Shown here piece after piece: positions 588 through 59,428 of a DNA stretch of 64,000 nucleotides (position 1 is its first letter; each line of letters starts with the position of its first letter). Source of the stretch: Nemertoderma westbladi (Eukaryota > Animalia > Xenacoelomorpha); the NCBI GenBank assembly GCA_032718475.1, contig JAUCBJ010008710.1, forward strand, positions 1 through 64,000. Direction: 5' to 3'. The notes below the pieces were generated by a model. The model worked only from the letters and a program-made list of their open reading frames with translations. It searched no databases and had not been told where the DNA came from. Position numbers and translations under genes: made by a program.

Positions 588-2673
588 TGTTAAACAAACT
601 ACCCCGGCCTAACCAATAAAGACACAAAACTGCTCTATTTATTAGACAGGGCAATCAGGAGCGTATTATTGCTAATGTGAGGGGCTGCTAAATACAAAAC
701 CGCTACTTACCGTTAGATGGCGCTAACCTGCCGTCCGCTAATATGTTTTACTAATTTTCTACGGCTCCTGCTAATTTCTTGTTCCTTTCTCTACCAATTA
801 CTCGATAGAGAGCTAACTGTTCGAATATATGAGCCACGCGGGAATAACCAAAACAACAAACCCGAATCGGCTCCCTAAGCTGACTTAAAACGAGTGTGAG
901 AGGTTTTACACTCAGAGTATATTCTTACGCCTAATCTTACTGTTAAAGTACGCCAATGCCTACGTCTTTTCTAATCGCGAATACTGGGGGTTCCCTAACG
1001 GAATGTGTGAATGCGAGAATATTTAAAATAATCAAAGTGGTACAGTGTTTATTAGGGCTAATACCTATAGTGGGACTAAACTTGTCTGCGGCTGGCTTTA
1101 GGCCAGCAAATTACTAATGCGTTTTGCGTACTGAATACTGCTATCTAGCTTATTGCCCGCTAATTCAAATAACCGCTCAGCGTGAATAGTTTACGGTACT
1201 CTAATTATTACCTTAGCTACTCTCCGCTATGCTGCGTACTAATTCTTAATTTTACTAATTAATTACAGTCACAAATATGTAACAGCCTAAAATACTGTAT
1301 TACTTTGACCTAATCAGTAATTATTTACAGTAAACTAAGAGATAGAAATCAATCAAAGGGAAAAGAGCGCCTATCTAAGCATTCGTAATCTTAGGCACAC
1401 TTTAGTAACACACCAATCAGCGTCAGCAATCACAGCTCGCAATGCGCGATTCACAATTGTACAATCCGCAATGCACGCAATTCGCAATTACACAGCACAA
1501 TATAATAATTCGCAATACATGCAATTCGCAATTGTAAAGCACGCAGACCTCTCCCGGGTACATCTAGGCTTCCTAACTAACCCAATTCCTGCCCCCCTAA
1601 TACTAAATAGAGACAAAACCTGGATCATCAGCCCCCTAATTACTGTACCAGCGAGCTGCCCCCACGCTACAATGCAAATTGCCCGACCGCAACGGTGACC
1701 CCCCGCCAGCGTTGCTCGCCTTTGAATCCTCCGCTCCCTTCGTCGCTAACCCCCCGATGTGCCCACCGCCCACTGGCGCCTTAGCCCTCCATTATGCTAA
1801 TAGCTACCGTAGCGGCGCATGCAAATCACAAAGTCTGACAGTCTCAGAAATCCCTTAGGATTATTGCGCAGAAAGGAATCACATAGAACCATTAATCAAA
1901 AGGTAGAAATCATAGTTCCAGTTGTAATTTGCAGTAATCGAAGGAATTAATTGAGAAACACAATCAAGAGTAATCGCACTAGCAAAGCATTTTGAGAAAT
2001 TAATCGAAAATAGCAAATTGCAGAAATACGCTAAAATATCCGTAAAAATGAATATAGACAGCTCAGCAAGTACAAGGTGATAGCAGATCATGTGAGGTGT
2101 CATGTGAGGCTCTACCGGCACACCGCCAATTTATAGGTGATCCGGATGGGGTGATGCAATAGGGTGACTCAATCGCTCTCCTATTGGCTCTCCAGTCCGT
2201 GCTAGCATTAGACCAACCTGGAAGCAGTTAGTCCAATAAGGAGGCCGGATTGTAGCCCTATTGCCTGCCCAAACCTCAAATTATTACCATATATGGTAAT
2301 GGTTCACGTCCCTGGCTGCTGAGTGGCCAGGACAGCGTCCCTATATCTAGCCCTATCGATGCTAATATCAGCAAGCACAAAATCCAGGGTCCGAATAAAC
2401 TCGCTACCCTGGAACTATCTACATATATCCTAATACAAAATTACGTAGGTAGGGCTACATACTATACAAAATGGATGGATTCAAATATATGGGTGTTTCG
2501 ATTTCCCTATCTAAATACTACTGCGTTATTATGCCTTATCTAAAATATTATGCTGCACAACGGACTAATATTACATACAGTATAACGGACTAATATTGTG
2601 TACAGTATAACGGACTAATATATTATACTGCATAATGGCTAATAATGTGGATACAGCGCCATATACCGTAACA
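588..2673 (-). repeat. 3' LTR of family A element
   Basis: Matches 15778-17863 at offset 15190; only one difference seen by eye (1378 A vs 16568 T). Preceded on the minus strand by a short purine-rich run GGAGCGG. Confidence 0.97.
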
Positions 2674-4913
2674 CCGCTCCAAGGGAAATCATATAATGTT
2701 TCCCTCCAATTGTAGAAGAGTATAAGGTGATGTATACAAAACAAAATAAATTTCTTCCAACTAATCTAAATACTTGATACTATAAATCCTACTATTTAAA
2801 AATATTGCTATAGATATTGCATAATGAATTACATACAAATTAAATTTACAAAATATTGTTTCTCGTTCGTACTACATAATGATTACTACATACAAAATTA
2901 AATTTACAAAATTTTACTTCCTTTATTTATTTACAAATTGACGGTCTACCTATTGAAATGGAACATGGCTAGGACAATGTCCCCCATTTCCCATCTCAAA
3001 TTAACGATCAAAATTAACAAGATAAACTAAATATAAACGTATTTGAGGCTAAATTTTTAACTAAATTGCATTAAAGGCCGATAATCAAATTAAATATAAA
3101 ATACGTAATAATTTCTTTCATTTTCGGACTTTACTTAATTTCTTATAAAAAACGCAAATCATATTGGTTTGATGATTGCTCAGGTAAGTGATAGGAGTAA
3201 GCCAAACCCGCGGGTTTGTCTCCCCAATCACTTCCTTTGCCTCTTTCAATAAACTTTAGAGCAAATAAAGTCATATACACAAAATCAAATATAGTTAAAG
3301 TATTTACTATTTCCAATCGGACTACAAAATAAAAGTATTTCCTTTCAATATTTTTCGGCCTTCGAAAATAAAATTCTAAAACATGGATACGACTAGTGTA
3401 TATGAGTCCAGTCGAATGATTGATCAAAACCTACGATATACATCAGAGCGACGATGATGTATATGTCTAGAGTTTGTCGCTCCGTGATATTATAGTCTCA
3501 TCGGCTAGCTCCTGGGTCTCTCGGGCTCGCTCCCCTCTCCAGATACACCAGTCTCGCTTTCGTCCTTCTGGGCTCCTCCCCGAGGCGCACCCACGAGGCG
3601 GACGTGTTTCCACCACCCCTGGGGCCAGTCTGACTGATGTTATTATCAGACCGGGCCGGAGGGTGGCCTGATGCTTCCCGGGTTCTGTTTTCGGTCCCCC
3701 GATCACACCAGCACAGCTCGTCGAACGTGTAGCCAGTCGGGCGGCTACTGTCAACTTACTGTGGCCTGACTGTACATTGAGCCAACTCAAAGTATAACAA
3801 AGAGTCAACCGGCAGGTGGACCAGTCGATAGCGATCGAGCACCAAGGTCGCCCTTGGGCCTAACCGACGGTCTTGTCCCATGTGGGCTTGCGCTACCCAA
3901 CATGGAATTTTGACTCGTTTTCACCTGCCTCGCCGGCAGTATTGAAAAGACAATACTGTCTGTAGCTCAAAAGCTACTGAACAAGTAACCACTTACCAGT
4001 CACTGTACACGTGTACTCAACAGATGTTCACAATATCAAGTACACCAATTGGACACATACCATGCACACACAGAGGACATAATCGGTAAAGACAAAATCG
4101 GGGTCAAAATCGGGAGGGACTAGTTGTATCGACTAGAGAGAACATGAGAGTCGAGAGTACCTTATTTTGCCGTCAGGGCAAAATAACTTTGTGCGCACAA
4201 AGTATGCTGGGGCGCAGTAAAATATGGTCCTACTAATACCAGCGGTGTCTGGGCCAACTGGCAAGGTTTCCCACACTCACTCGCAGTGGCCATACATACA
4301 ATCACGTGTACTCACGCACCCACAGCAACAGAAAACTCAAAGGCCCAAACAAATCCCAAAAACCAATCAGCTGAACATGGAGACAATAACATATAGTATC
4401 AAAAAAACGGAACAGCTGATGGTCAAAAGGAACCCATCCGAGCCCCAAGCAACTGCCACTGATCGCCCACATACAAAACACAATTCACACCACATGACAC
4501 CACAAATCACACCATGCCACCACCCCTACTGTGTACAGGACTGGCAGTACGGCAACATGCCGACTAGACGGTACCACGGCACCATGTTGATTCATGGTTC
4601 GCTAGACACGAGGGCCATCAGTATCTCCCTTGCACTTAAACTCGATTTAACGTGCCCCCAGACCCTCACGAGTCCGCCGCCGCCTGTTACAGTCACCCCT
4701 ATAGAGACCTCACCTCTTTAGGTAACCGTCGAATAGAACTGCTCGTCCTTGGCTTGACGCTTGCCAAGGACTCCTCCTTCTGGTACTTGCCGCGAGCTGT
4801 GAGCTCCGGCTGTTGTCGCTGTGGGCGCGGCGGTCCTGATCCTCCACTCGTTCAGAGGTCAATGACCCCAAACGAGTCTCCTTAGGCCGCCAATTGTGCG
4901 CTGGGTAATAAAT

Positions 4914-5576
4914 CTAGACGTATATATCAGAGCGACGATGATATATAAAGGATTGGACAGATTCGGGCTTAATAATACGTGCGTCGAAACTTCCCGAAAT
5001 AATTTGGAGTAAATATCGTATAAACCGTGGATCGTGGGTGTGGTTAGTAGACGGATGGATGGCGCGAATCTCGTCTGGATACTCAGGCGTGAGTTTCCTC
5101 TCCTGGTGAAGCGAAGTGAACGTGGTCCAGGAACTCGAATCCCGTGCCGCTTCGCGCTGCGCCTCTAGGTCTTTATAGGCTCGGTATAGCGAAATGGCCG
5201 CTGCCGTGTCTATCAAACTGGGTGTCGAACAGGGTTTAATCTCCGTATACGGATCTAATGTCGTAACGGTCGGCGTAATGGGTCTCGGAGGTAGCCTTCC
5301 GCTAAAGTCGATACTGATCATCGGGTCGCTCATCGGGTAACCTCCCTCGTTATATCTAAGGAACTGGTGAGCTTGACAACGTGTTAATATCGGTTCTGGA
5401 TGTTGCTCGTCTAGTCGGTCGGGAATCGTGGGTTTGTATTTCCCATTTAGCTCCATCACTGACCGCCCATGGTAGTAAACGTTCGAATCTTTACATCCCG
5501 GTCGCGCGAATGGTAACTCCGCCTCCTCTCTGGCAGTAAATCCTCTGCGCGGTTGCGCTCTAATATCCTTCTCCAT
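4914..5576 (-). CDS. Accessory ORF (220 aa, unknown function) downstream of pol in family A
   Basis: ATG-initiated, same sense as gag-pol, in the env-equivalent position; no signal peptide or transmembrane stretch visible; no family recognised. Confidence 0.5.
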   Translation of the reverse strand: MEKDIRAQPRRGFTAREEAELPFARPGCKDSNVYYHGRSVMELNGKYKPTIPDRLDEQHPEPILTRCQAHQFLRYNEGGYPMSDPMISIDFSGRLPPRPITPTVTTLDPYTEIKPCSTPSLIDTAAAISLYRAYKDLEAQREAARDSSSWTTFTSLHQERKLTPEYPDEIRAIHPSTNHTHDPRFIRYLLQIISGSFDARIIKPESVQSFIYHRRSDIYV

Positions 5577-6334
5577 TATGCCCCGCGTATATACATATAT
5601 AACCCAATAAGTGTTCCGTTACGCAAACCAATTACACTGTGGGTAATCAGTTAGATGTCGCCGAAGGACAGACTTCCCGAACCCCCCTTCCAGCTGCCTT
5701 CCAGCAGTTCAGGTTCGACTCTCTAGATCCCGTCTCTTCCTAACTATCCTCTAACCTATTCCCATGCATAGCGCAAAAACTTTGGAGATAAACTGGCCGT
5801 GACCAACTCACTTTTTGATGCCCAAACTACTCCCATTACTCGTACTAAACTACAGTAGTTAGAAAGGACTATAGCCACAATACTCGACTATACCAAACCC
5901 ACAGGTTTGATAATCGAACATCACACATCACTGCAAACTACTGAGTGGGGTCCATGTACGCCTCTGGTGCTACTAACCTTTAGCACTTTAGTTGCACTGT
6001 TGGCACCAATCTGTGGAAGTTGCTAAACTCAATTTACACTCCTACGTAATATAGCCGTCACCATGGTTTCTAAATGCTATTTTCCAGGCTTCACGACTTT
6101 TCAAATTACTGTTATCTATAGACGAATTCTAAAACGCGTCTATACACAGCGTCTGGAATTGTCTTGGGTTCACTTCTAATTTTTTAAAATTTTCTAATTT
6201 TCCAAAATTTTGAAATAAAATTTTGTTTTGATACCCACCAGACAAAACTCAACGCAAATCACCACAACCCCGCTCCTATGCATTTCCTTGTATTTGCATA
6301 CGAGGAATGCATACGAAGTGAGTTGCGTCCAACA

Positions 6335-9300
6335 CTAACTCTGTTTTGAGGCAGGAGACAAATTATAATCTCCCGTCTCGATACGTGTCTCCTCTAATAA
6401 CACAATATCTTGGACCGGTCGGTCCAAGGTGTGTAAACCATTAGTTTGACACTTCTTTGGGTGCGGACACTTGCACCTAATTTTCACAGTGACTGTGCGC
6501 ACTATGTTTTGCACGTCTGGGTGTGTGTGCAAGATCACTCCAGTCTCCCAATACTTTCTCTTGACAATGGGTTCGGTTATCAGTACGTAATCTCCCCTTT
6601 GGAGACTCCGAACCGTTTTGTACCACTTTGTTCTGGTGGATATGGTGGGAAGATAGTATTCCCGCCAATATTCCCAGAATGTGTACGCCACAAACTGTGT
6701 CACTTTCCAGCTTTTATGACTATATAGGTCGGCACTAATGGGTTCTGATGCCGGCACAAGAAACGCTGGACTCTGCATTAGCAAATGATTCGGCGTTAAT
6801 GCAACACCGCCTGGCAACATGGCTATCGGCCTCGAGTTTAATGTATGCTCGATTTCGATGAAAGCTGTGACCAGCTCGTCGTCGGTAAGTTGTTTGTTTA
6901 CAGGCAATGTTTTGGCAATGGCCTGTTTTACAGAGCGAACTAAACGCTCCCAACTTCCTCCTCTCCAAGGACTTTCTGGAGTATTAAATCTCCACTCTAC
7001 TCGTTGCGGCAAAAGTGCTGCAGAAATTTCCTTATTCTGTGCCGCTTTATGAGCCGCGTTCAACTCGCTGTTCCCTCCGACAAAGTTTGTACCCTTATCG
7101 GAGTAGAACGCCTTTACTAGTCCTCTCCTGGCCATAAATCTCTTCAAGGCCAGGAGCAGAGATTTGGTCGACATGTCTGCCACACGCTCGATATGTATGG
7201 CTCTACTCGCCATACATGTCAGTAGCAGACCCCATCGCTTGTGGGTCAGCCGTCCACTCTTTGCCTCAATCGGACCAAAACAATCCACCCCTGTGTTCGT
7301 AAAGGGTGGGTCATATGCCTGCACTCTCGCTTCCGGGAGTTCAGCCATCTCTTGTTCCAATACTCTGGCGTTCACCCTCTTGCAAACCAGACAGGCGTCA
7401 TACATGGTGCCGACTGCCCTGCTTGGCTGCAATAGAATGAATCGCTGTCTCGCTGCCGACAAACAGTGTAACTTTCCCGCGTGATGCAACCTCTTATGTA
7501 TATCCCATAGAATCGCTCTTTGCAATTCTATTGGGTGACTAGGGATTATCACTGGGAACCGAAACTGTGAGTTTATGTCGACAGTCTGGATTCTCGATCT
7601 ATGACAAATTAAACCCTTATGGATTAATGGACTCCATTTTCTAAGGGGTTTATAGAGAACTGGTCGTTGAGCCGATAATAGATGGAATTCCTTAGGGAAG
7701 GCACACATCTGATAATGTTTCAAATGCTTTAATTCCGCTTGATCAATCTCATCCTCTGTCAGAGGTTGTTTCAATTTTCGAATTCGCTCACTATTGGTGC
7801 TCGTTCGTTCTCTCAAATGTTTCGAATGTTTTAAACAAAGGTACAAAATGTATCGGCTTAACCACGCAGTTCTTTTACAAATTGTCAGCCAAGAGGCAGA
7901 CGAATTTAGTAATTTGTCATAAATACTACATGGCTCTAATAATGCCAGCGACGGTTGTCCGCTAGTTAATGGAAGTTTCGAATCCAAACCCGCAGGTTTG
8001 GAAACCAAAGACTCCATTTTGTCGGTCATTTTCTGTCCGTCACTTACCAACTGTGACTCCGGTTTAGTCTGTAAGGGTGGTTTGATGTCATAACTTACCC
8101 TTCCGGACCTAGTAGTCACGTAAGTCTGTTGGTCTGACAGGTCTCCGGGCCGCTCCAATAACTCTTCAGGCCGCTCCAATGACTCTTCAGGCCGCTCCAA
8201 TGACTTAAGTTTGGCTTTAGACTTCGATTTAGAGACTTTCTCCACCTTGACTTCTGCATCTTCAGGCATCGGATTGGTCACTATCTTTAGTCGCTCTGGC
8301 CAATGTTCCTGTGTCCTCGTTAGAAAATCAGGTCCATGCAACCAAAACTCCTGCGACTCTTCCTGACAGAATTCCGCCGGCATTGCACCTCTCGAAGTTA
8401 TGTCGGCCGGGTTTAACACTCCCGGACAATGTCTCCATTGTTCCTTCGTCGAAAAGTCGACGATCTGAGCGCGTCTATTGGCCACAAATGTCTTTAGTGC
8501 AATATTGTCGGCCGCAATGTATACTAACACCAAGGATGCGTCCGTCCAATAAAATAAGGTCAATGTCGTGTCTAACTCCTTAGTTATTTGCTTACTTACC
8601 TCGACCGAAACTACAGCCACCTGTAACTCTGCACGAGGGACAGTCATGTATTTGACCGGCATTGTCTTTGATCTAGAAGTCACAAAGGCCGTCTCAAATT
8701 TGTCCTGACTTACCTCTCGGCGTAGGTAGGCTACCATACCAAAGCCGGTGTCACTTGCGTCACTGAACAGATGCAGCTCTAAATCAGCTGGGAATACCAG
8801 CTGATTCGGGAAGTAGGAGCGGGGTACATCTATGTTTTTCAATAGATGTAACTCGGCTTCCCACTCTCTCCACTGCTTTGCATGTATAGGAGATATTGGT
8901 TCGTCCCACTCTACGTCGGACAACCAAATTTTCCTCATGCACGCTCGTGCCTGTAATATAACCGGACTGATAAAGTTCATCGGGTCAAACAGTCTACTTA
9001 ATGTCGATAAGCAAATCCTCTTAGTCAAAACTTTGTCTGGGCTACTGGGCTCAAATCTAACTCTTACCTGGAACTTATCTGAGTTCGGGTTCCAAGCGAG
9101 TCCCAGTACTCGCGCCATGGGGAGTGGTTCTACCCCCAATTCTATGTCTCCGCTCCCGCGATCTTTCACCGGGAACGACTCTAATAGGGCCTCCGAGTTA
9201 GTAGTGAACTTGGTCAGAGGAAAACCCCCTGTAGCCAAGCACTCCTGCAGGCCGTGAGCCACTTCTATGGCTTGTTCCGCCGTGTCCTTGGACACCAATC

Positions 9301-12163
9301 CGTCGTCCATGTAGAAGTTTCTCAAGATGGACTCGATAACCTCTACTGGGTACTTACCAATCTGGGCTGTTGCCGTTTTCTTTAAAACGAACAGCGTGCC
9401 ATTCGGACTATCGCGGGCGCCAAATATCCTAACGTACATTTGGTATGTAACCACTGGGCCGGATAAGTCTTCATTCTCGTACCAGAGAAAGCGAAGGCTA
9501 TCCTGGTCTGCCTTACAGGCTCTTACCTGGTGGAACATCGCCTCGATGTCACAAGTAAATGCGAATCGCCGCTGTCTAAAACGCAACAGTATTCCTATCA
9601 AATAGTTATTCAGGTTGGGACCATCCATCAACTCTGAATTCAGGGACATACCTCTATAGACTGCTGCGCAGTCGTTGACTACTCGGACTTTGTCTGGTTT
9701 GTCAGGGTGAGTCACATAGTGGTGTGGAAGGTAATAAGTCTGGTCTGTCACTAAGTCAGGGTCCTCTACCTTCCCAGCAAATCCCTTGGCGAAATAGTTG
9801 TTGATCTGGGCGCAATACTTCTCCCTAATGTCTGGATTCCTCAACAACCGAGCCCTTACTCCGTTTAATCTTTTCAAGGCTAAGTTGTAGTTGTTTTCCA
9901 ACTTAGGAGGTTGTCGACGCCACAACATTCCAACTTCAAAATGTCCAGTCGGTAGTAGACGTATGGTATCTTCCATCATCTCCAGCGACCGTTTCTCATC
10001 AGTAGACATGGCTAGGTCATATCCACCGGGTTCCATTGCGTCCCTATCCAGCCATTCGACGGTTCTGGCTCCTGTCTCGAGGTCCTGGCGTATCAATTCC
10101 TTCTGTAGCTCCTCCTCACTGTATTGGAAAATGTCTAGGTCTCGATATTTAGCCACTTGACCCTCCACTATGTCTGTATAAGTCAAAACGTTAGTCAAAT
10201 AGGTAGCGTGGGCCGCTGAACCAGACCCACGGGTCTGATAACAGTAGTCCTCGGGTTCACTATCTGTCCGGTCGTTGTGAAGTGGTTCCGACAACCTAAC
10301 ATTATCGGGAATCAACTCCTCGTCCGACTCGCTAAAGTCACTATAGTGGTCAATACAGGTTCTCCTAAACTCGTCTATGTCTGGTGGTTCTACTAACGGT
10401 GGTTGAGTTATAGGCTGTAATTCGTCGTATCTATTCATTGGCTTGTCGCCACCTGTAAACTCATAAGACATGGGTACTCTTGTATACCAACCTAATATAG
10501 TCCTATGGGCATGTGGTCCATTGACATGCGGTTCAGCTGGTCTCGTTTCCCATATTTGGTGTGCGATCAGCTGTTCTGCACCAATCAACATGGAAACATT
10601 CCTATAACCTACCTGATGTCTGGGTATCCTGAGCTTGTCAAAATACTCCTGTGCTATGGGACTCATCGGCGGCACCTTACCTAACTGCCTGCCGAATCCC
10701 TTCATAGCTAGACACTTAAATCCGTCCAATGGCAAAGCTTTCCGTTCTTGTCGAGTGTGTTGGTCTCTCGGAAGTAGGGAATCTAGTTCTACCGAAATTC
10801 TGTGTCCCTTGAGGTCTCCTACCCCGTGCATAGACTTCAACTCTATTTGGATCTCCTCGGCGTCCTGGAAGCTAGAAACGGCTCTCGCCACTTCCTCGTC
10901 GATATACGATAATGTGGACGCAGTGTCCAACATCACATATATTCGCTTCGATCCCTTATCGCCAGTAAGTTTCACCGGAATCACGCTAAATATTTCCGAC
11001 GTGGCCGATGATAAATACGTCCGCGCGCTGGTCGATGAACTATCCGCAGTGAAACCTTGGCAGGTCACTTCTCTTGCGCTCGACTCGCCATCTTCGTCCG
11101 ACGAACCTGGTTGATAACCATCGTCCTGAATGCCGGTGTACGTATTCCTCCTTATCGATACGGGTTCTTTGCTCCCCTTCCTGTGAGGATTTCGCTGTAA
11201 GTAACGGTCCGTTGGGGTATGGAAATCCGCATGTAGCAACTTGTGATGTAGTCTGCCGCATTCCATGCATCCGTCCTTGCTGTTCGGGCACTGCCGCCGT
11301 ACATGACCTGGCGCAAGACAAGCCCAACAGGTGTCCAACGTCCGCACTTGAACTCTTCTCTGTTCCGAATTTAATTCTTTGAACCGTCTGCAACTATCTA
11401 ACTTATGGTCGTCAGATCTTACCTCCTTTAGTAAACAGTATTGGCAACCTACAAATCCATCCGGCAACTCCTGTTGCTTTAACCTAGGTCTATCTAACCG
11501 CTCACCTGACCATACTCGCGAGTCTGATCTAAAGGCTGGGGTACTCGAATTATATCTGTCTACTGAGTTAAATGTCACAGTGGTCCTGTCGTCGTCAAAA
11601 CTTACCATAGACTTACCGGTAACAGGTTTAGACTCCCTCATATTCTCTTCTGAGAAGTTTGATTTCATCTCTGCTACTGCGTCTGTGGCTATCATGTCAT
11701 GAATATGCTGAAGTGTCAATACTTTACCTTGGCCCTCCAACTTATTCTCTAATTTGCGCCATTTCTGTCTGTAACGCATGTTTAGACGTCTTATTACGCT
11801 CTTTAAAACTTCGGCGTGATCACCATGATGAGGTAGATTCACCGTCCTCAAGATGTCCAATGCGTTCGAAATAGCGTTCGCTAAGTTCAACAGCTCTAAC
11901 GGAGTTGTAATCCTTCCGCCCTTACCCAAGTCTTCCACTATCGACTGCGCCATCTTGGTTTTATTCCCGTAGATGTCACTAAGCGTCTTCATCGCTAACT
12001 CGAATGCCCTTTCATTGCCGACGAAGTTATCAGCAATGGCTCTAGGTTCTCGATGGAGCATCTGAAGCAAATAGTTGAACTTCTCGTTGGGAGTAAAGGT
12101 GCTGTTGGTTAGCTGCTCGTCGACATAGGTTTTGAAGGTCCTCCAATGCTTATGGTTGCCCAT
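6335..12163 (-). CDS. BEL/Pao Gag-Pol polyprotein (capsid-like DUF1759 region, 3 zinc knuckles, aspartic protease, RT, RNase H, integrase), 1942 aa
   Basis: Motifs in order: CQYC..H..C / CWACLAPGHVRRQC / CMECGRLHHKLLH; MLDTAS; LPHHYV, FTCDIEAMFHQV, FYMDD; LHLFSDAS, NPADITSRG; HKRLHH..CLVC, GVDCFGP, YSDKGTNF, WERLVRSVK; FWEYWREYYL. Confidence 0.96.
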   Translation of the reverse strand: MGNHKHWRTFKTYVDEQLTNSTFTPNEKFNYLLQMLHREPRAIADNFVGNERAFELAMKTLSDIYGNKTKMAQSIVEDLGKGGRITTPLELLNLANAISNALDILRTVNLPHHGDHAEVLKSVIRRLNMRYRQKWRKLENKLEGQGKVLTLQHIHDMIATDAVAEMKSNFSEENMRESKPVTGKSMVSFDDDRTTVTFNSVDRYNSSTPAFRSDSRVWSGERLDRPRLKQQELPDGFVGCQYCLLKEVRSDDHKLDSCRRFKELNSEQRRVQVRTLDTCWACLAPGHVRRQCPNSKDGCMECGRLHHKLLHADFHTPTDRYLQRNPHRKGSKEPVSIRRNTYTGIQDDGYQPGSSDEDGESSAREVTCQGFTADSSSTSARTYLSSATSEIFSVIPVKLTGDKGSKRIYVMLDTASTLSYIDEEVARAVSSFQDAEEIQIELKSMHGVGDLKGHRISVELDSLLPRDQHTRQERKALPLDGFKCLAMKGFGRQLGKVPPMSPIAQEYFDKLRIPRHQVGYRNVSMLIGAEQLIAHQIWETRPAEPHVNGPHAHRTILGWYTRVPMSYEFTGGDKPMNRYDELQPITQPPLVEPPDIDEFRRTCIDHYSDFSESDEELIPDNVRLSEPLHNDRTDSEPEDYCYQTRGSGSAAHATYLTNVLTYTDIVEGQVAKYRDLDIFQYSEEELQKELIRQDLETGARTVEWLDRDAMEPGGYDLAMSTDEKRSLEMMEDTIRLLPTGHFEVGMLWRRQPPKLENNYNLALKRLNGVRARLLRNPDIREKYCAQINNYFAKGFAGKVEDPDLVTDQTYYLPHHYVTHPDKPDKVRVVNDCAAVYRGMSLNSELMDGPNLNNYLIGILLRFRQRRFAFTCDIEAMFHQVRACKADQDSLRFLWYENEDLSGPVVTYQMYVRIFGARDSPNGTLFVLKKTATAQIGKYPVEVIESILRNFYMDDGLVSKDTAEQAIEVAHGLQECLATGGFPLTKFTTNSEALLESFPVKDRGSGDIELGVEPLPMARVLGLAWNPNSDKFQVRVRFEPSSPDKVLTKRICLSTLSRLFDPMNFISPVILQARACMRKIWLSDVEWDEPISPIHAKQWREWEAELHLLKNIDVPRSYFPNQLVFPADLELHLFSDASDTGFGMVAYLRREVSQDKFETAFVTSRSKTMPVKYMTVPRAELQVAVVSVEVSKQITKELDTTLTLFYWTDASLVLVYIAADNIALKTFVANRRAQIVDFSTKEQWRHCPGVLNPADITSRGAMPAEFCQEESQEFWLHGPDFLTRTQEHWPERLKIVTNPMPEDAEVKVEKVSKSKSKAKLKSLERPEESLERPEELLERPGDLSDQQTYVTTRSGRVSYDIKPPLQTKPESQLVSDGQKMTDKMESLVSKPAGLDSKLPLTSGQPSLALLEPCSIYDKLLNSSASWLTICKRTAWLSRYILYLCLKHSKHLRERTSTNSERIRKLKQPLTEDEIDQAELKHLKHYQMCAFPKEFHLLSAQRPVLYKPLRKWSPLIHKGLICHRSRIQTVDINSQFRFPVIIPSHPIELQRAILWDIHKRLHHAGKLHCLSAARQRFILLQPSRAVGTMYDACLVCKRVNARVLEQEMAELPEARVQAYDPPFTNTGVDCFGPIEAKSGRLTHKRWGLLLTCMASRAIHIERVADMSTKSLLLALKRFMARRGLVKAFYSDKGTNFVGGNSELNAAHKAAQNKEISAALLPQRVEWRFNTPESPWRGGSWERLVRSVKQAIAKTLPVNKQLTDDELVTAFIEIEHTLNSRPIAMLPGGVALTPNHLLMQSPAFLVPASEPISADLYSHKSWKVTQFVAYTFWEYWREYYLPTISTRTKWYKTVRSLQRGDYVLITEPIVKRKYWETGVILHTHPDVQNIVRTVTVKIRCKCPHPKKCQTNGLHTLDRPVQDIVLLEETRIETGDYNLSPASKQS

Positions 12164-14653
12164 AAACTTCTGGGGTTGTTACGTCGGCAGTCCTTGCCTA
12201 GCAGCAAACTTACCTATGTCCCTAAGGGTTGCGTCGTTCCGGGTTAACAAATGGTTTAGTTCTGCAGGGTTATTAAGTCTGGTCCTTTCCCGGTGGTTCC
12301 AACTTACCTGCTCCGCGTCGGTCCTTCTTTCCTTATAGTTTCGGGACTTCTGACGTCTCATTTCTTCCTCTTCATCGCTTGACTCGGTGTCAGTCCTTAG
12401 CGCTCGCGATGGTTTGCGCGCCGAGGCCCTGACCCAAGCATCTTGTATAAATTTCTCGGCCGAATTTTCGAAGTTGGGATTATGAATATTCGGGACAGGC
12501 GTCCTTACCTGAGGTCTATGTGGTATAGTCTCCTCCGATATGCGTACTCGTTGACTAGGCTGGACTTTATCTAACTCAGGCCTGCTGGGATTAGAATTAC
12601 TTCTTACCTGGGCTGCTTCCTTTAACCGTAGGTTGCTAAGCATGTCCGTTATAGGTTGGATGTGCGGCGATATAGCTTGCGCTAAACTAGCACTTAACTC
12701 ATCCCTCGTAATAAATTCCTGGCTAGGGTTCTGTTGTATAGTCGGCTCTATCTGAGTAATCCGCTGTCTCTCATATGATCCCTCTTCCGGTTTAACCCGG
12801 AAGTTCTCCGTCGAACTGGGTCGGCGCTCCGTCCGCGTATTCCAAACCCGCGGGTTCGGTTCGCCCAATACTCGTCCCGTCGGAGTTTCTCTAAACTCTC
12901 CATCGTCGTGTTCGGTGTGTAGTGGTGCGATGTTCTGATGCCGTGGATTCTGCGCGATAGGTGAAGCACTAATACCAACTGGCGTGCGATATGTAGAGAA
13001 CGGTTTAGCGATCCGTGTACTCGTAATAGCTGGACCGGGTATAGGAATTCTGGTCGTCGTCGACTCGCGTATAGTCGGAGTTCTCGCTTCCTGTTCGGCC
13101 TTCTGCAGTGCGAACAGTTCTCACAACTCAGTCCCTACACTCGCCCCACATTCTTCGATCATTCGCATCCCCTTCTCGGCGATTTCGTTCGCCTTCCTAG
13201 TCCGTTCTTCGCTCTCTAAACTTAATCTCGCACTTTCCAACTGCGCCAGTTTACGTTCTTCTTCCTCCCTTGCTCGTCTCGCTGCGCCCTCTTCTTCCAC
13301 ACGCGCCTTCTCTTCATACAATGCCCGTCGCTCCCTCTCGCGCTCAAGTTCGCGCTCCTTGCGCTCGCGTTCGAGTTGGAGTTCGCGTTCTTCGCGTTGG
13401 AGTTGGAGTTCGCGTTCTTCGCGTTGGAGTTGGAGTTCGCGTTCTTCGCGTTCGCGTTGGAGTTGGAGTTCGCGTTCTTCCTGTTCGCGTTCCGCTTGTT
13501 CACGCTTACCTTTCTCTTCCAACTCTCACAACTTTGCGTCTAACTTACGTGTGCGCTCGTGTTCCCGCTCGGCTTCCTTCCGTGCTTCCGATGCACGCAA
13601 AACTTCCGCCTGCTGTTCGTCTAGTCGGCGTCTTCTCTCCTCCGCCGAGTTGTGCGAAACAAGGGATCTAGCACATATAACCTTACCTCGCGCGTGACTA
13701 ACCTGGGAATCGCCGCTGTCTCTGGATGCGTCGTCGGGTGGAGTCAACGTCCTCTGTTGAATGTTCTCCGTCGTCGGTAGCACCTGACCCGGTACCACCA
13801 CTCCATTCTGCATCAGCCAGCTAGTAACTTCCCTCTGATAACGGCGCTCCTCTTTATCCTGGATCTCTTCTCGCTCCACTAAGTCTCTCAACTCTGCGTC
13901 ACTCACCTGAGTCGCCTGCGCTTGTGATGCCCATAGCAGCCAGTTCTCCGTCCTAATTCGTCGGAATCGCTCCGATAACTCGCGGTGCTCCAACAAGGCT
14001 GCTAAAACCCTGTCGTAAATCCTCGTCACCACGTCGCTCGACTGAGACTCTACTGCCTTCTTCGCTAGGACTGCAAGCTCCTCCGTCTGCTTGAATAACG
14101 CTGAGTTATATCCTCTTCTAATCTCTACTAACTCTATCCTCCCGATGTTCGCTGAGTCGGCTAACATTTTCCTTACCTTGTCCGCCGTCCGACTTATATG
14201 TCCGGCATGCGCGCGAAGTTTCTTCTTTATCGCGATATCAAGTTCTCTCTCGCTTACCTGACTCACACTTGGTGGACTTGAAGGATTATTTCGGGAACTA
14301 CGGGTACTTCTAACAGCCGTCGGGACCACGGCACTTACCATACCCACAGGTCTGGAAACCGGGCTCCGGGCTCTCGCTTCTGCTACACTACCCTCCCTAT
14401 CACTCACCTCTGTCCGGGTTGCTGTACAATCCTTCCTTACAGTAGCGGTAGGGGATCCTAATACTATTACCTGAGGCTGCTGTTCTTCCTCACTGGTCAC
14501 TGTCTCATCCTCCTGTTCACTTACGTCAGCGTCGCTCGCTGCGTCGTCATAGTCGGCATTGTCGTCAACAGTAATATTTACGCTATCGTCAGTCGGCGGT
14601 CCAGCCGCCGTCTCATAGCTGTCCTCTAGTGCCTCCTTGTCTGAGACACTCAT
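12164..14653 (-). pseudogene. N-terminal part of family A gag (acidic/coiled-coil extension), in frame with the polyprotein but broken by three stop codons
   Basis: ORFs 13526-14653, 13121-13522, 12179-12868 and 6335-12163 share one frame, separated by TGA (13526-8), TGA (13121-3) and TAA (12179-81). The paralog at 19972-21348 has CGA at the first site. Confidence 0.9.
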
Positions 14654-15766
14654 AGTCTAAATAATGTTTGCCTTCCGGCAAAATATCTCGCAAAAGTTCG
14701 AGATATAATTATAATTTAACCGAAATACGGTCAAATTAATTGTCAAATAATCAGTTGGTCCAAATGTCAAATAAATTCGCAATGCAATATTGTGAATTTA
14801 ATGGGGTATAGTTATAGCAAATACTAGCACAATATTTAAACAAAAATATTATTATATAGCTACTATAGCATTAAATACCGGTATAGCACAAATAACTTTG
14901 AATCTAATACAAAATATTCAAAATAAACTTGCCACCCGAATATTTCTAATTTTATATAGCTCTAATCAACGTAATTTTAATTTCAAATATTATATGTATC
15001 CACTAGCGCGTGGCTACATCTTCGGGTTGCGACTCTCTCTAACTCTCTCTCTAACTTGAGCGATTCAAAAAACCATGGCCGGCTAAACCTAAATATCCTA
15101 ACTAATAAATTGAGTTCAGCTTCGCAGTTAAACAACCGATAATTTTTTACTGCTTCCACAAACACTATGGTGCCAACAGAACAACTAACCTTGTTTGCTG
15201 TGAGATTCCACGTCCGCGTCCAAAGATTCAGGCCCTTCGCTGATTGCAAACCGAACCCGCAGACCCACACGAACCCCAAACTCAGAAGTTCCGTCTTGCC
15301 ATGTATCTCCAGATGGTATAAAATAACTAAGCGGTTACCTAACATACCGGTACAAAACTCTAGAATTTTACAAATAATTTTGACCGAAACTGAATTCTCG
15401 CAAACCTAGCTAAAATTTTCAAAAAACTTACTAATTACAATTTGCCCTAAGGCCTAAGGAACTGCTGTATTCGCAATTAGTAAAAACGCACTACCGTACA
15501 TCCACTGTATGCAGTACAGTAAGTAAAACAGTACACCAACCTAACAGCCTAATTGATACTGTGTGTGTGGTACGGCAAACAAATGTCCTTCTACCGTACG
15601 CAGTAACAGCAATCAGCCTAATGTACTACTGTACTATCGTACGCAGCCAGTGAATACAGTAATCTAAACTAGCCTAAAAATACACTCTCTGTCCTACTAT
15701 ACGCAGTACAGTGCCTAATACAGTAATCTAATTTGTATTTACTGTACGCAGTACAGCAAGCAAATC

Positions 15767-15777
15767 ACGTGCTTTAC
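15767..15777 (-). promoter_or_regulatory. Non-tRNA primer-binding site candidate of family A (GTAAAGCACGT)
   Basis: Directly abuts the 5' LTR end; lacks TGG; complementary to LTR positions 16724-16734 (10 Watson-Crick pairs plus 1 G-U). Confidence 0.7.
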
Positions 15778-17863
15778 TGTTAAACAAACTACCCCGGCCT
15801 AACCAATAAAGACACAAAACTGCTCTATTTATTAGACAGGGCAATCAGGAGCGTATTATTGCTAATGTGAGGGGCTGCTAAATACAAAACCGCTACTTAC
15901 CGTTAGATGGCGCTAACCTGCCGTCCGCTAATATGTTTTACTAATTTTCTACGGCTCCTGCTAATTTCTTGTTCCTTTCTCTACCAATTACTCGATAGAG
16001 AGCTAACTGTTCGAATATATGAGCCACGCGGGAATAACCAAAACAACAAACCCGAATCGGCTCCCTAAGCTGACTTAAAACGAGTGTGAGAGGTTTTACA
16101 CTCAGAGTATATTCTTACGCCTAATCTTACTGTTAAAGTACGCCAATGCCTACGTCTTTTCTAATCGCGAATACTGGGGGTTCCCTAACGGAATGTGTGA
16201 ATGCGAGAATATTTAAAATAATCAAAGTGGTACAGTGTTTATTAGGGCTAATACCTATAGTGGGACTAAACTTGTCTGCGGCTGGCTTTAGGCCAGCAAA
16301 TTACTAATGCGTTTTGCGTACTGAATACTGCTATCTAGCTTATTGCCCGCTAATTCAAATAACCGCTCAGCGTGAATAGTTTACGGTACTCTAATTATTA
16401 CCTTAGCTACTCTCCGCTATGCTGCGTACTAATTCTTAATTTTACTAATTAATTACAGTCACAAATATGTAACAGCCTAAAATACTGTATTACTTTGACC
16501 TAATCAGTAATTATTTACAGTAAACTAAGAGATAGAAATCAATCAAAGGGAAAAGAGCGCCTATCTATGCATTCGTAATCTTAGGCACACTTTAGTAACA
16601 CACCAATCAGCGTCAGCAATCACAGCTCGCAATGCGCGATTCACAATTGTACAATCCGCAATGCACGCAATTCGCAATTACACAGCACAATATAATAATT
16701 CGCAATACATGCAATTCGCAATTGTAAAGCACGCAGACCTCTCCCGGGTACATCTAGGCTTCCTAACTAACCCAATTCCTGCCCCCCTAATACTAAATAG
16801 AGACAAAACCTGGATCATCAGCCCCCTAATTACTGTACCAGCGAGCTGCCCCCACGCTACAATGCAAATTGCCCGACCGCAACGGTGACCCCCCGCCAGC
16901 GTTGCTCGCCTTTGAATCCTCCGCTCCCTTCGTCGCTAACCCCCCGATGTGCCCACCGCCCACTGGCGCCTTAGCCCTCCATTATGCTAATAGCTACCGT
17001 AGCGGCGCATGCAAATCACAAAGTCTGACAGTCTCAGAAATCCCTTAGGATTATTGCGCAGAAAGGAATCACATAGAACCATTAATCAAAAGGTAGAAAT
17101 CATAGTTCCAGTTGTAATTTGCAGTAATCGAAGGAATTAATTGAGAAACACAATCAAGAGTAATCGCACTAGCAAAGCATTTTGAGAAATTAATCGAAAA
17201 TAGCAAATTGCAGAAATACGCTAAAATATCCGTAAAAATGAATATAGACAGCTCAGCAAGTACAAGGTGATAGCAGATCATGTGAGGTGTCATGTGAGGC
17301 TCTACCGGCACACCGCCAATTTATAGGTGATCCGGATGGGGTGATGCAATAGGGTGACTCAATCGCTCTCCTATTGGCTCTCCAGTCCGTGCTAGCATTA
17401 GACCAACCTGGAAGCAGTTAGTCCAATAAGGAGGCCGGATTGTAGCCCTATTGCCTGCCCAAACCTCAAATTATTACCATATATGGTAATGGTTCACGTC
17501 CCTGGCTGCTGAGTGGCCAGGACAGCGTCCCTATATCTAGCCCTATCGATGCTAATATCAGCAAGCACAAAATCCAGGGTCCGAATAAACTCGCTACCCT
17601 GGAACTATCTACATATATCCTAATACAAAATTACGTAGGTAGGGCTACATACTATACAAAATGGATGGATTCAAATATATGGGTGTTTCGATTTCCCTAT
17701 CTAAATACTACTGCGTTATTATGCCTTATCTAAAATATTATGCTGCACAACGGACTAATATTACATACAGTATAACGGACTAATATTGTGTACAGTATAA
17801 CGGACTAATATATTATACTGCATAATGGCTAATAATGTGGATACAGCGCCATATACCGTAACA
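15778..17863 (-). repeat. 5' LTR of family A element
   Basis: Direct repeat of 588-2673, upstream of the gag start on the minus strand; TG...CA termini. Confidence 0.97.
17319..17377 (-). promoter_or_regulatory. Candidate Pol II promoter in family A LTR
   Basis: Minus strand CCAAT (17373-17377), AP-1-like TGAGTCA (17355-17361) and TATAAAT (17319-17325) in canonical order; motif inspection only. Confidence 0.45.
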
Positions 17864-17865
17864 CC

Positions 17866-18373
17866 AACCCTGACGCTACCTCCTACATTCAAACAAACCG
17901 GTCAACAGAATCCCTCCTCGAGCAGAGGGCGCGCCAAAAGAAGGCACACTACCAGCCAGTGTGTGAAGATCGACGGATGGCCTTCACACCACTGGTGGGA
18001 ACCACAGATGGTGTCTGGTGTGCCGAGGCCAAAATCCTCATCGCACACCTCACAGAAGCACTGGTTGCAAGGCGAGAGTCTATGCGAAACCGCGGCTACG
18101 CCTGTGTCTTGGGTGCCGTCCAGCGGAGACTGCAGTTTGCACTACTTCGGTCATGTTCGCTCTGCCTCCGTGGGGGTCGGAGGTCTTGGCGAGGTCTCGG
18201 TTTCGGTTATGGGACCGGGATCTGGGGTGGTTAAGAGAGGGGTAAAGGGGGAAAGGGGAAGTAAAAACTATTACTATAACAAAATTAAAGTGCGCTCAAT
18301 TACTTTACTCACCCCACATTGTTTGTACATTTATGTATTATTGTTTGTTATTATACGTAAATAAAGTTCTTCT
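17866..18373 (+). mobile_element. 5'-truncated CRE-like non-LTR retrotransposon (C-terminal restriction-like endonuclease region plus 3' UTR)
   Basis: Frame from 17866 reads NPDATSY...KKAHY...FTPLVGTTDG...RLQFALLRSCSLCLRGGRRSW, resembling CRE-clade C-termini; AATAAA near the 3' end; 13-bp TSD ACGTAGAGGCCAA at 574-586 and 18374-18386. Confidence 0.8.
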
Positions 18374-18984: not shown

Positions 18985-19027
18985 CAGTGCTGCAGTGCGG
19001 CAGTAATAACGCGCTCCTGATCGCCCC

Positions 19028-21335
19028 TGTTTAACAGTAAAAACCACTTTGACTTACAGTACTGTACTACGTACAGTAAGAACCATTTTTTTTTATTTTT
19101 GCTGTTGCTTTGCAACAGTAAGAAACATTTGTTCACTAATCGCAGAATACAGTAATTTGTTGGGCCGTTAGGGTAAATTGTAAATTAGTAAGTTTTTGAA
19201 AATTTTAGCTAGGTTTGTGAGAATTCAGTTTCGGTCAAAATTGTTTTATAATAAAATCTAGAGTTTTTTTACCGCTTAATTATTTTATAAATATAATAAC
19301 ATAGCGAGACGGAGCTTCTGAGTTTGGGGTTTGTGTGGGCCTGCGGGTTCGGTTTGCAATCAGCGAAGGGCCTGAAACTTTGGACGCGGACGTGGACGTG
19401 GAATCTCACAGCAAACAAGGTTAGTTGTTCTGTTGGCACCATAGTATTTGTGAAAGCAGTAAAAAAATATCGGTTGTTTAACTGCGAAACTGAACTCAAT
19501 TTATTAGTTAGGATAGTTAGGTTTAGCCGGCCATGGTGTTTTGGATCGCTCAAGTTAGAGAGAGAGAGAGAGAGAGAGAGTCGCAACCCGAAGGTGTAGC
19601 CACACGCTAGTGGATACATAAAATATTTGAAATTAAAATTACGTCGATTAGAGCTATATATAAAAATTAGAAATATTTGGGTGGCAAATTCATTTTTGAA
19701 TATTTTGAATTAGATTCAGAAATTATTTTGTGTCATACCGGTATTTAAATGCTATATAATAGCTATAGAATACTATTTTTGTTTAAATATTGTATTGGTA
19801 TTTGCTATAACTACACCCTATTAAATTCACAATATTGCATTGCGAATTTATTTTGACATTTTGGACCAACCTATTATTTGACAAATAATTTAACCGTGTT
19901 TTCGATTAAATTATATATATATCTCGAATTTTTGCGAGATTTTAGCCGGAAGGCAAAACATTATTTAGACTATGAGTGTCTCAGACAAAGAGGCACTAGA
20001 GGACAGCAATGAGACGGTGGCTGGACCGCCGACTGACGATAGCGTTAATATTACTGTTGACGACAATGCCGACTATGACGACGCAGCGAGCGACGCTGAC
20101 GTAAGTGAACAGGAGGACGAGACAGTAACTAGTGAGGAAGAGCAAGAACACCAGGTAATAGTATTAGGATACCCTACCACTACTGTAAGGAAGGATTGTA
20201 CAGCAGCCCGACCAGAGGTGAGTGATAGGGAGGGTAGTGTAGCAGAAGCGAGAGCCCGGAGCCCGGTTTCCAGACCTGTGGGTATGGTAAGTGCCGTGGT
20301 CCCAGCGGCTATAAGGAGTACCCGTAGTTCCCGAAATAATCCTTCAAGTCCACCAAGTGTAAGTCAGGTAAGCGAGAGAGAACTAGACATCGCGATAAAG
20401 AAGAAACTTCGCGCGCATGCCGGACATATAACTCGGACGGCGGATAAGGTAAGGAAGATGTTAGCCGACTCAGCGAACATCGGAAGGGAAGGGTTAGTAG
20501 AGATTAGAAAAGGATACAACTCAGCATTATTCAAACAGAAGGAGGAGCTTGCAGTCCTAGCGAAGAGAGCAGTGGAGTCTCAGTCGAGCGACGTGGCGAC
20601 GAGGGTTTACGACAGGGTTTTAGCAGCCTTGTTAGAGCACCGCGCGTTATCGGAGCGATTTCGACGAGTTAGGACGGAGAACTGGTTGCTTTGGGCATCA
20701 CAAGCGCAGGCGACTCAGGTGAGTGACGCAGAGTCGAGAAACTTAGTGGAGCGGGAAGAAAACCAAGATAAAGAAGAGCGCCGGTATCAGAGGGAAGTTA
20801 CCAGCTGGCTGATGCAGAGTGGAGTGGTGGTACCGAGCCAGGTGCTACCAACGACGGACAACATCCAACAGAGAACGTTAACTCCACCCGACGACGCATC
20901 TAGAGACAGTGGCGATTCCCAGGTTAGTCACGCGCGAGGTAAAGTTATATGCGCTAGATCCCTCATTTCTCACAACTCGGCAGAGGAGAGAAGACGCCGA
21001 CTAGACGAACAGCAGGCGGAAGTTTTGCATGCATCGGAAGCACGGAAGGAAGCCGAGCGGGAACGGGAGCGCACACGTAAGTTAGACGCGAAGTTGCGAG
21101 AGTTGGAGAAAATAAGTAAGCGTGAGCAAGCAGAACGCAAGCGCAAGGAACACGAACTCCAACTTGAATGCGAACAGAAGGAATGCAAACTCCAACTTGA
21201 ACGCGAGCGCAAGGAACGCAAACTCCAACTTGAATGCGAACAGAAGGAACGCGAACTCCAACTCGAACGCGAGTGCAAGGAACGCGAACAAAAGGAATAC
21301 GAACTTCAACTCAAACACGAGCGTAAAGAACGAGT
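19028..21335 (+). mobile_element. Truncated, diverged paralog of family A (last 9 nt of LTR, 5' UTR, 5' gag)
   Basis: TGTTTAACA matches the family A LTR end; the following sequence is an inverted homolog of ~15500-13350. Confidence 0.9.
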
Positions 21336-32620: not shown

Positions 32621-32959
32621 TTAACCCTATTAAACCTGGGTGGGGGGGGGTCAATATGACCATTCCCGTGGTTTTTCTGTTATAACTCTGAAACAAACGC
32701 AGCGGGGAATCTGAAATTTTATGACTTTTCTTAAAAATCTATTGTCTTCCTAATAGTGCAAACAGTTTTCAAAAATATTGGGAAGTTTTCGAGTTATAAC
32801 ACCATTTATTAGCCCTACTTTTGACACTTTTTTGAGGCGTTTTTTGAAAATTACATTATTCATTAAATATAGTTAATATAATTCATCATCTATTTTTTAT
32901 TTAAACCGGTTTTCTGGTGATTGCAATTAGATGGAATTCTTCTAAATAAATTTAGAAAT

Positions 32960-33660
32960 TTCAAACCTCTTTTTTTCGAAGGGTTCCAAAATTGGTGCCA
33001 GCACCAAATTTTGAAATTTATCAATTTCGTAAATTGATTGTATGAACCTGTTTTTTGCGTAATATGGGTTTGTTGGGGCTCTGATTTCGATGGAATATAT
33101 ACGAGTTGCACCAGGAGTATCAATCTTGCATTTTTTGGCGCGGTGTGCAAAATTTGGTGCCAGCACGAAATTTTGAAAATTCATTCAATAGTTAAATTGA
33201 TTGTTAAAACTTATTTCTCGTGTTTTAGAGGTTTATGGCGGTTCTGAATTCAATGAAATAAATAATTATCTAACTATACATCTCAAACATGTATTTTTCG
33301 GAACTGGGTGGAAAATTTGGTACTAGCTCCAAGTTATGAAAACCACCAAATATATCAATTGATTGTATCGTTTGTAATTGTTTGTAAAGGTTCTGAATTC
33401 AATGGAATATGTAAAAATTCCATAAGAGATTCCAAACCTGTATTATTCGCCGGTGGTGAAAATTGTTGTGCCAGCACCAAATTTTTGAAAATAAGCAAAT
33501 TGATCAATAGATAGTATCATCTTGTTTCTTGCGTTATACGATTTTATGAGGGTCTTGAATCCGATGGAATCAATAAAAACCGCACTGGACATCTCAAACT
33601 TGTACTTTTTGGTGATGGGTACGAAATTTGGTGCTAGCACCAAAATTTGCCATATTACGC
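32960..33660. repeat. Diverged ~160-bp tandem repeat (about 5 units)
   Basis: Palindromic core AAATTTGGTGC(C/T)AGCACCAAATTT recurring near 32990, 33150, 33313, 33460 and 33625. Confidence 0.8.
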
Positions 33661-40303: not shown

Positions 40304-42079
40304 AAGGAATGTAAGAAATTCCGAATACGAGCGATTTCTTTATTGCGGGAAATTTTGAATTTCTATAGAATACTATTAGTGCACTCTTACTCTGGTTAAC
40401 CGCCGCGTCTGGTGCTGTGCCGTGTGGTCTGGGCCTCATTTCTATTGTAATATGTTATAGAAGCGAAATCTTTGATCTGAAATCCTACTGTTTGATCAAT
40501 TACAATTAATATATAAATCTGTAACTCATTTATTGCTTTAACTGTGAGCTAAACCATTATGGTAAGGCAGCATGTACTAATTATTAGAAGACCGTTAGGA
40601 CTTCTTACTGGTTAATGGTATTCTCTATCAATATTTATTTATGCATATTAGGCTCCTCGGAAACAATAGCTCGTCCGTCAATGAAAGGTATATCAATCGA
40701 CGCAGCTCAACCCCAGGATGTGGAAAAAAGTTTCTAAAAAAATTATTAAAGTGACTTTTTTTTATTTCGCCATAACACGAAAATTGCCATAGACTTAATG
40801 ATAGAAATACCAGCTGGTGCGGATACGCCCAAACTACAGAGAAGTATTTTACTTGCCAAGTTTTAGTAAGGTTGTGTTTACTCACTCACACTATCACAGA
40901 CAGTAATCAAAATCAACTGTTTATAATGTATTACCCCGTCAGCTGAATATTTCTTCCCAGTGAATCCTATATGAATATCTATAATGTTACTCACTGCTTG
41001 AATGATTATAAGCACAGGGCCGTTAATTAATTAATAGGGCTGCATTCAAATGGGTCAGGCCCACCTAATAATGCCCCTAAGCCAACTCTATGAATTCCAT
41101 TGCCACAGCAGTCAATGAATATCTATAAATTTAATTTCGCGACAAAATAATATTAAAAAAAAAAACGAAATATATCGAATACCACACATAGAATCGACCT
41201 GAAATTTTGTAACGCGATTATGAACCACCAAAGCAATGTACTTGCAAAATTTAACCAAAAAAGCTAGGCAGGAAATGTTCGAAACTGCAATTCCGGTATA
41301 TGTACTGTATGATAGCATTGGATAGCATATGGATGGATATATCCCTCACTGACAATTTTTTCTGACAGTAACTACTAGAGACGGGTCTAGCGGCCGTGAA
41401 GCAAGTCGTAGGAGACAGTACGAGTCAGGTAAAAGCTTTTTGTACTGTCTGATAATCAATTAGTGTGAGGGTAGTCCCGGTGGTGTACGAAAAATTTTCT
41501 AGACAACTTCAAACTAAAATTATTATGTTGTAATCATCTAATGAATTAATTATATAAGCTGTTGTGATTATAGAAGATAGAGAGCAGTTAGCGAAATGAT
41601 TATTTTAGCGCAATAATTTTTATTGTCCGTTTAAATCCTTTTTTTGTCCTTTTTTTTTATTTTTTATGTCCTCCAAAAGTCTAATGTTAGGTTCCATGCT
41701 ACCGGTTTCTCTACTGCTGTTCTCTCAGGCTATCAGTACCGGTATTAGTATATATAGCACTATTTTGCTGTATTGTATGTACAGATGTAGGTATAAAGCA
41801 GGTATTTCTGTATTTTAGTACCGGTACCGGCACCGGTACTGCTATAGGCCTACTGTGTAGCCTACCATTTAAATACGGTAATGGTAGGCCTACCGGTTGT
41901 GCTAATAAATTTTAAATAATTGATAGGCCAAACTGGATTGCAGGATTGTGGAAAATGTGGATATACCTTTCACATAATTTAGGCCTTACTGTATTAGTTT
42001 TATAATCAATAATGGATCATGACTACTGTCTGAGTAGTGTTACGGATAGCGGCACCACTACTTCCAACAGCACAGAAGG

Positions 42080-59417: not shown

Positions 59418-59428
59418 ATAACAGTCAT
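59418..59428 (+). promoter_or_regulatory. Non-tRNA primer-binding site candidate of family B (ATAACAGTCAT)
   Basis: Directly abuts the LTR end; exact reverse complement of ATGACTGTTAT at 58647-58657 inside the same LTR. Confidence 0.72.

Follow-up and report, generated by a model that had tools for sequence, protein, structure and literature searches.

What RNA starts reverse transcription in a BEL/Pao retrotransposon whose 5' LTR is followed by no TGG? The question is raised by element A, which lies in a window of 64,000 nucleotides (contig JAUCBJ010008710.1 of Nemertoderma westbladi), the whole stretch of DNA that was analysed. The best reading is that element A probably primes reverse transcription with its own RNA instead of a host tRNA. 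Support for this comes from sequence comparison: the geometry in element A itself, and the recurrence of an own-LTR match, written with other letters, in distant relatives.

Element A and its primer-binding position

The element and a related copy in the window are laid out as follows.

588-17863, minus strand: element A, a BEL/Pao LTR retrotransposon delimited by an LTR pair and a target site duplication (TSD), total 17,276 nt
15778..17863, minus strand: 5' LTR, 2,086 nt, with TGTTA...TAACA ends
588..2673, minus strand: 3' LTR, with a copy of the candidate primer at 1544-1534
6335..14653, minus strand: gag-pol, one frame of 2,772 codons
2674..2680, minus strand: purine run GGAGCGG before the 3' LTR, a short, weak polypurine tract (PPT)
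18995..21289, plus strand: sister copy A', a remnant LTR end TTTAACA followed by GTAAAAACCAC, the remaining LTR missing

The first-pass annotation had fixed the 5' LTR end by the LTR pair and the TSD, and this was borne out. The LTRs run from TGTTA to TAACA and GTTGG is present on both flanks (17868-17864 and 587-583), so that the end of the 5' LTR is placed at 15778. A single mismatch in 2,086 nt, at 16568, separates the two LTRs; element A is a young, recently inserted copy with near-identical LTRs. The sequence that flanks it at 17864-18300 looks like the last part of the coding frame of a non-LTR element.

The polyprotein carries DUF1759, Cys-His knuckles, a protease (DTAS), a reverse transcriptase (YMDD), RNase H/Peptidase_A17, an integrase and DUF5641. 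Pfam matches were found to PF03564, PF05380, PF17921 and PF18701, and a chromodomain match was absent. The motifs follow one another as DTAS, YMDD, FSDAS, DCFGP and GGSWE, which is the order Gag-protease-RT-RNase H-integrase. Among the matches listed in the polyprotein search, PF05380 was present in all 120 of 120 homologues, the closest protein was at most 44% identical, and the relatives that carry a name are marine invertebrates. Three in-frame stops (13528, 13123 and 12181) all fall within the gag part, and the frame is open from 12178 onward (1,947 codons); decay, copying in trans and readthrough are all compatible with this pattern. A stretch of 3.7 kb separates pol from the 3' LTR (6334-2674, minus), and a 220-codon ORF at 5576-4917 (minus) gave neither a Pfam match nor an atlas match at >=0.9.

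Elsewhere in the window, a BEL-like family C (30870-29590, minus) shows an LTR-end-like TCAACA followed by GTAAAGTATTC; its upstream complement reaches at most 9 of 11, with LTR limits that are not fixed. A solo LTR of ~1.2 kb (29192-27993, minus; TGTTC...TTACA, TSD CCTAG) sits inside family C, and pieces related to it lie at 58727-59420 and 51488-51580. Tandem arrays occupy 42012-42759 (68-nt units), 56542-57310 (10 nt) and 32954-33649 (~160 nt).

The features that bear directly on priming adjoin or lie within the 5' LTR.

15767..15777, minus strand: primer-binding position GTAAAGCACGT, adjoining the 5' LTR end, no TGG
16724..16734, minus strand: candidate self-primer GCGTGCTTTAC, 946 nt separating its 3' end from the LTR end, pairing predicted to ~16743
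15742..15756, minus strand: leader hairpin CTGTAC-TGC-GTACAG, the first of three similar leader units (15756, 15711, 15519)

A TGG had been reported missing from the ~55 nt after the 5' LTR, and it is absent through the 130 nt that were searched. The pairing described in the first-pass annotation was found again: LTR positions 16734-16724 pair with the start of the primer-binding site (PBS) by ten Watson-Crick pairs plus a G-U at 16734, and the 3' C of this 11-mer pairs with the first base after the 5' LTR. Within the LTR, 16733-16724 is the sole exact 10-nt complement of the PBS start. Beyond what had been noticed at first, the duplex is predicted to be longer than 11 nt, since past the 11-mer a one-base bulge is followed by five pairs (two of them G-U) and then by three more. 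The predicted stability of the whole duplex is -20.3 kcal/mol, against -10.7 kcal/mol for the next-best among 86 AC-ending LTR sites, a gap of 9.6 kcal/mol. The chance occurrence of the 10-mer had first been put at ~0.002; when the LTR was shuffled by dinucleotides, the exact 10-mer was recovered in 13 of 5,000 shuffles (39 of 5,000 when offsets of 0-5 were allowed). A duplex of -20.3 kcal/mol was reached in none of 300 mononucleotide shuffles, and the PBS score of element A was matched by the LTRs of none of 17 other elements.

The leader hairpin, which had been pointed out next to the PBS, is indeed present; it is not special to the PBS, however, because three similar units occur in the leader. 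Directly 3' of the candidate primer lies a degenerate TTGCGAA-type repeat (16723-16620, minus). The sequence of this block differs from copy to copy as far as the predicted cut site, as three contig joints end at 16723. A primer formed across a splice junction was considered for element A and rejected, the best junction scoring 9 versus 10.5 for the contiguous site, and no strong splice donor was found between the TATA box and the primer in its LTR. A strong donor match, ACG|GTAAGT, occurs at 15900 (minus) in the U5 part of the LTR and perhaps serves a spliced message. An Rfam scan of 14600-17900 returned one sub-threshold match (E 0.13), which was taken as chance.

The family of element A comprises many copies, as judged from contigs of four sequencing runs. 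Among the 40 listed of 149 variant rows, no variant fell at the PBS or the primer, and contig X3, with a depth of 1,750, covers 16674-16767 without any difference. Two family contigs diverge from the alignment inside the 11-mer, with joints at 16728 and 16733. The single run presumed to be RNA gave no contig across the primer, an absence that carries no information on expression. Sister copy A', which is inverted and ~89% identical to element A over 19132-21289, has a different PBS that scores at most 9 on the LTR of element A, as expected under self-priming or otherwise.

Own-LTR complements in distant relatives

BEL loci were gathered from two sources, 79 from the best 80 of at least 652 and 35 from a prokaryote genome collection. 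The latter (L081-L115) most likely represent DNA of animal hosts within MAGs. Of the 113 loci examined, 48 showed a direct repeat spanning pol; the 3' end of the 5' LTR was defined by the repeat pair in 17, and 31 were dropped as the repeat ran to the contig end or was non-LTR. Scoring covered 11 nt of the PBS, with G-U counted as half, against the contiguous LTR and against junctions of predicted GT-AG introns. Several choices were made after the data had been seen. The offsets were widened from 0-2 to 0-5 after a scan of all loci, with a cross-pair control run at identical settings; after that scan, too, L062 joined the set and 91 was chosen as the end of L039; and the donor pattern was written after six LTRs had been inspected. 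In the first run (21 loci, offsets 0-2) the misses were L029 at 8.5, L028 at 9 and L024 at 9 (wrong LTR end), together with two loci with an incomplete LTR, L036 at 8 and L085 at 8.5.

A TGG site is present in five of the 17 pair-defined relatives and absent in the other 12. It was found that 11 of these 12 score at least 10.5 of 11 on their own LTR, the remaining one (L082) scoring 10; with element A included, 12 of the 13 non-TGG elements reach 10.5 and the thirteenth 10. The relatives with TGG score 7.5-9 on their own LTR, and none of the five reaches 10.5. When the PBS of one element was set against the LTR of another, 4 of 306 cross pairs reached this value. The proposal of self-priming thus gained ground, in that distant relatives keep an own-LTR complement with other letters while TGG relatives do not. 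The best primers listed end in AC in 11 of 13 cases, element A counted.

In most relatives the primer is formed across a predicted intron, a feature that the first-pass annotation did not foresee. Nine of the 12 (L012, L026, L027, L029, L031, L039, L071, L082 and L086) match best at a predicted splice junction, and three (L007, L043 and L062) at a contiguous site, as in element A. The distance from primer to LTR end is 70-244 nt in the relatives versus 946 nt in element A. These LTR introns are predicted, and the support for them consists of consensus sites and of L043. In L043 the upstream LTR piece (145-326) has a splice acceptor exactly where its likeness to the contiguous downstream LTR (6924-7103) begins, the downstream LTR carries the 11-nt primer without interruption, and the two pieces are 88% alike. 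They probably stem from separate copies that share a contig, and L043 would then present intron-bearing and intron-less LTRs of one family, as expected from intron loss.

Further own-LTR matches of 11 nt were encountered after the fact and are uncounted in the test, at junctions in L003, L005, L006, L024, L028, L040, L057, L064, L073/L074 and L077, and contiguous in L075 and L079. A scan over all BEL loci yields many chance 11-mers and was used for leads only. The exact 22-nt LTR pattern had no match in metagenome contigs, and viral contigs held no BEL relative.

In phylogenetic trees element A forms a long branch (best identity 44%). Three of four trees grouped it with self-type elements and with no TGG type, with support of 0.87 (106 rows and a further 11 proteins; L086 was omitted because its coverage was short), 94 (43 rows) and 89 (30 rows). 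The careful 21-row tree placed it in an 84/90 group that also takes in L030 and L078, both of TGG type, and joining element A to TGG types is not rejected by AU tests (p 0.13 and 0.30). Element A is likely akin to the self-type lineage on these trees.

These comparisons also bear on the view that the match in element A is chance or a relic, the element using another primer or being copied only passively. An event of 0.3-0.8% will occur when many elements are scanned, ACAGTAAA-like units repeat in degenerate form in the leader of element A, and AACAGTAAA recurs inside an unrelated solo LTR of the window. Family C has ACA|GTAAAG too (at 30870), yet its upstream complement reaches at most 9 of 11, with LTR limits not fixed, and this copy of element A has the three gag stops. 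However, the match in element A has the register, length and AC end of those of 11 relatives, the near-identical LTRs indicate that this copy was reverse-transcribed recently with its present PBS, and the deeply covered contig X3 leaves 16674-16767 unchanged. Chance or a relic is therefore considered distinctly improbable.

Possible course of priming and competing primers

Another candidate is a host tRNA half: tRNA-Val(UAC), cleaved immediately 3' of the anticodon, would yield a 5' half that could prime element A alone or beside self-priming. Through its 5' half, the tRNA-Val(TAC) of viral contig L001 forms 8 contiguous pairs with the PBS and, past a 2-nt bulge, another 6; the predicted stability is -17.4 kcal/mol, and the 3' end of the half falls on base 1 of the PBS. 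An equal fit arose in 30 of 20,000 random PBSs starting GTAAA and in 1 of 200 sets of 50 shuffled tRNAs, and half-tRNA priming is known from Ty1/copia lineages, according to the accessible text of PMC6317226; in the same text, half-tRNA primers among plant elements are confined to Ty1/copia. Against this, the match was found post hoc, requires a bulge and involves a tRNA from a viral contig rather than from the host, and the self duplex is the more stable one (-20.3 vs -17.4 kcal/mol). This half-tRNA cannot explain the lineage, because it pairs over only 2-5 contiguous bases in 11 of 11 relatives tested and gives just -5.1 with sister copy A'. It would also make the LTR 10-mer a coincidence of ~0.3-0.8%. 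The 64-kb window contains no tRNA gene. On balance, priming of element A by the tRNA-Val half is unlikely.

Under self-priming, which remains the preferred reading, the steps can be outlined by analogy with Tf1. The Tf1 self-primer is 11 nt long, and RNase H cleavage in Tf1 self-priming is said to have been described by Levin in 1996. In element A, LTR positions 16734-16724 of the transcript would anneal in cis to 15777-15767, the RNase H of the element would cut after 16724, and the reverse transcriptase would extend the new 3' end through the 946 nt of LTR that are left. Element A carries the RNase H motif. The signals of the LTR relevant to these steps are the following.

17319..17325, minus strand: TATAAAT, the best TATA box and a candidate, ~590 nt upstream of the 11-mer
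16799, minus strand: TATTTAG, weaker, ~65 nt upstream of the 11-mer
16238..16243, minus strand: AATAAA, downstream of the primer, with a second AATAAA at 15833

As each AATAAA is placed 3' of the primer, polyadenylation at a signal beyond the cut would retain an R region through which strand transfer could proceed, and the 3' LTR would supply promoter and primer anew. In each cycle the PBS would be written afresh as the primer is copied into plus-strand DNA, so that the two sites could stay matched without paired mutations. Most relatives would build the primer by splicing an LTR intron, which element A may lack.

How the primer is released was left between a transcript start at the 11-mer and internal release in the first-pass annotation, whose TATA box is present as described. 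A Tf1-like start at the 11-mer agrees badly with the relatives, in which motifs resembling a TATA box, read by eye, lie ~60-130 nt upstream of the 5' part of the primers. An internal cut is therefore more likely than a transcript start at the 11-mer. The predicted helix depends on the RNA considered. Its probability in element A is 0.98 for RNA from 16734 to 15755, 0.32 for RNA from 16766, and 0 for the TATA-start RNA (17295 to 15700). It is 0.98-0.99 in L007, and in L062, L079 and L075 it ranges from 0 to 0.97 with the bounds chosen. Side duplexes like those of Tf1 were sought between the 60 nt after the primer and the U5 end or the post-PBS leader, and none were found, 562 of 1,000 and 257 of 1,000 shuffles being as stable.

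When the RNA is folded from the TATA start, no long-range helix in cis is predicted. This would be accommodated if the primer came from another RNA, either separate or terminated, that ends at the 11-mer (made from the 3' LTR, with its copy at 1544-1534, or from a solo LTR) and anneals in trans by this 3' end without an RNase H cut. Both LTRs of element A carry the identical 11-mer, and the family has many copies. Nevertheless, the sole AATAAA signals of the LTR are downstream of the 11-mer, and polyadenylation would leave the 3' end blocked; a primer supplied in trans is thus very improbable.

Relation to known priming systems

By its proteins element A is filed as BEL/Pao, from whose ICTV profile it departs in PBS and size. 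It shares with Belpaoviridae/Semotivirus (BEL, Pao, Sinbad, Suzu, Tas, Dan, Flow, Sailor) the set and order of domains, the TG...CA LTRs and a 5-bp TSD. In the ICTV profile the PBS measures 18 nt and is complementary to the 3' end of tRNA-Arg or tRNA-Gly, the LTRs range over 0.2-1.2 kb and whole elements over 4.2-10 kb; BEL/Pao replication is there called poorly understood and is assumed to be tRNA-primed (PMC8742986). Unlike this profile, element A has no PBS for tRNA-Arg or tRNA-Gly, its LTRs measure 2,086 nt and its total length is 17,276 nt. Of the PPT of ~10 nt that is a feature of Belpaoviridae, it shows only GGAGCGG. The element is kept in BEL/Pao because the PBS feature of the profile is taken as descriptive and not as a family boundary.

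Tf1/Tf2 of S. pombe, the Tf1/sushi group and plant Tcn1 lack a tRNA PBS and use a self-primer from the 5' LTR transcript, as stated in the accessible text of two sources (10.1101/2022.12.06.519325, PMC6317226). Like Tf1/sushi, element A has no tRNA PBS and holds an LTR-derived sequence complementary to the PBS. In contrast to these Ty3/gypsy chromoviruses it has BEL/Pao domains and no chromodomain match. Its primer appears to be internal, not at the RNA 5' end as in Tf1, and no pretzel side duplexes were found in it, while its relatives form the primer across a predicted intron. Element A probably works like Tf1, yet it is no member of the Tf1/sushi group. BEL/Pao elements are not known to occur in plants. 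Among plant Ty1/copia elements, self-priming is predicted for the TAR lineage (Houba, Osr-1), and Osser, Bryco and Bianca use half-tRNA priming; non-standard primers have accordingly arisen more than once, these being plant copia elements unlike element A (PMC6317226, in its accessible text). Neither self-priming nor LTR introns were found described for BEL/Pao in the openly accessible literature searched, and the term 'PBS' is absent from the accessible text of the BEL/Pao surveys PMC3118150, PMC554778, PMC6238403 and PMC8556966.

Taken in full, the proposal is that a broad marine-animal BEL/Pao lineage swapped tRNA priming for an internal, AC-ending self-primer of 11 nt, mostly spliced, and that element A is a derived, intron-less member with giant LTRs and a reach of nearly 1 kb, whose PBS may also accept a tRNA-Val half; the chances of this composite being right are judged to be evenly balanced. 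Self-priming predicts an RNA-DNA junction right after 16724. If true, self-priming would extend to a third LTR superfamily beside Ty3/gypsy and Ty1/copia, with a primer that is internal rather than 5'-terminal, and this would explain the failure of tRNA-based PBS searches on such elements. In the relatives, priming would be tied to splicing, so that splicing by the host would act as a licence for reverse transcription. Such elements would also be predicted to escape host control acting through tRNA fragments.
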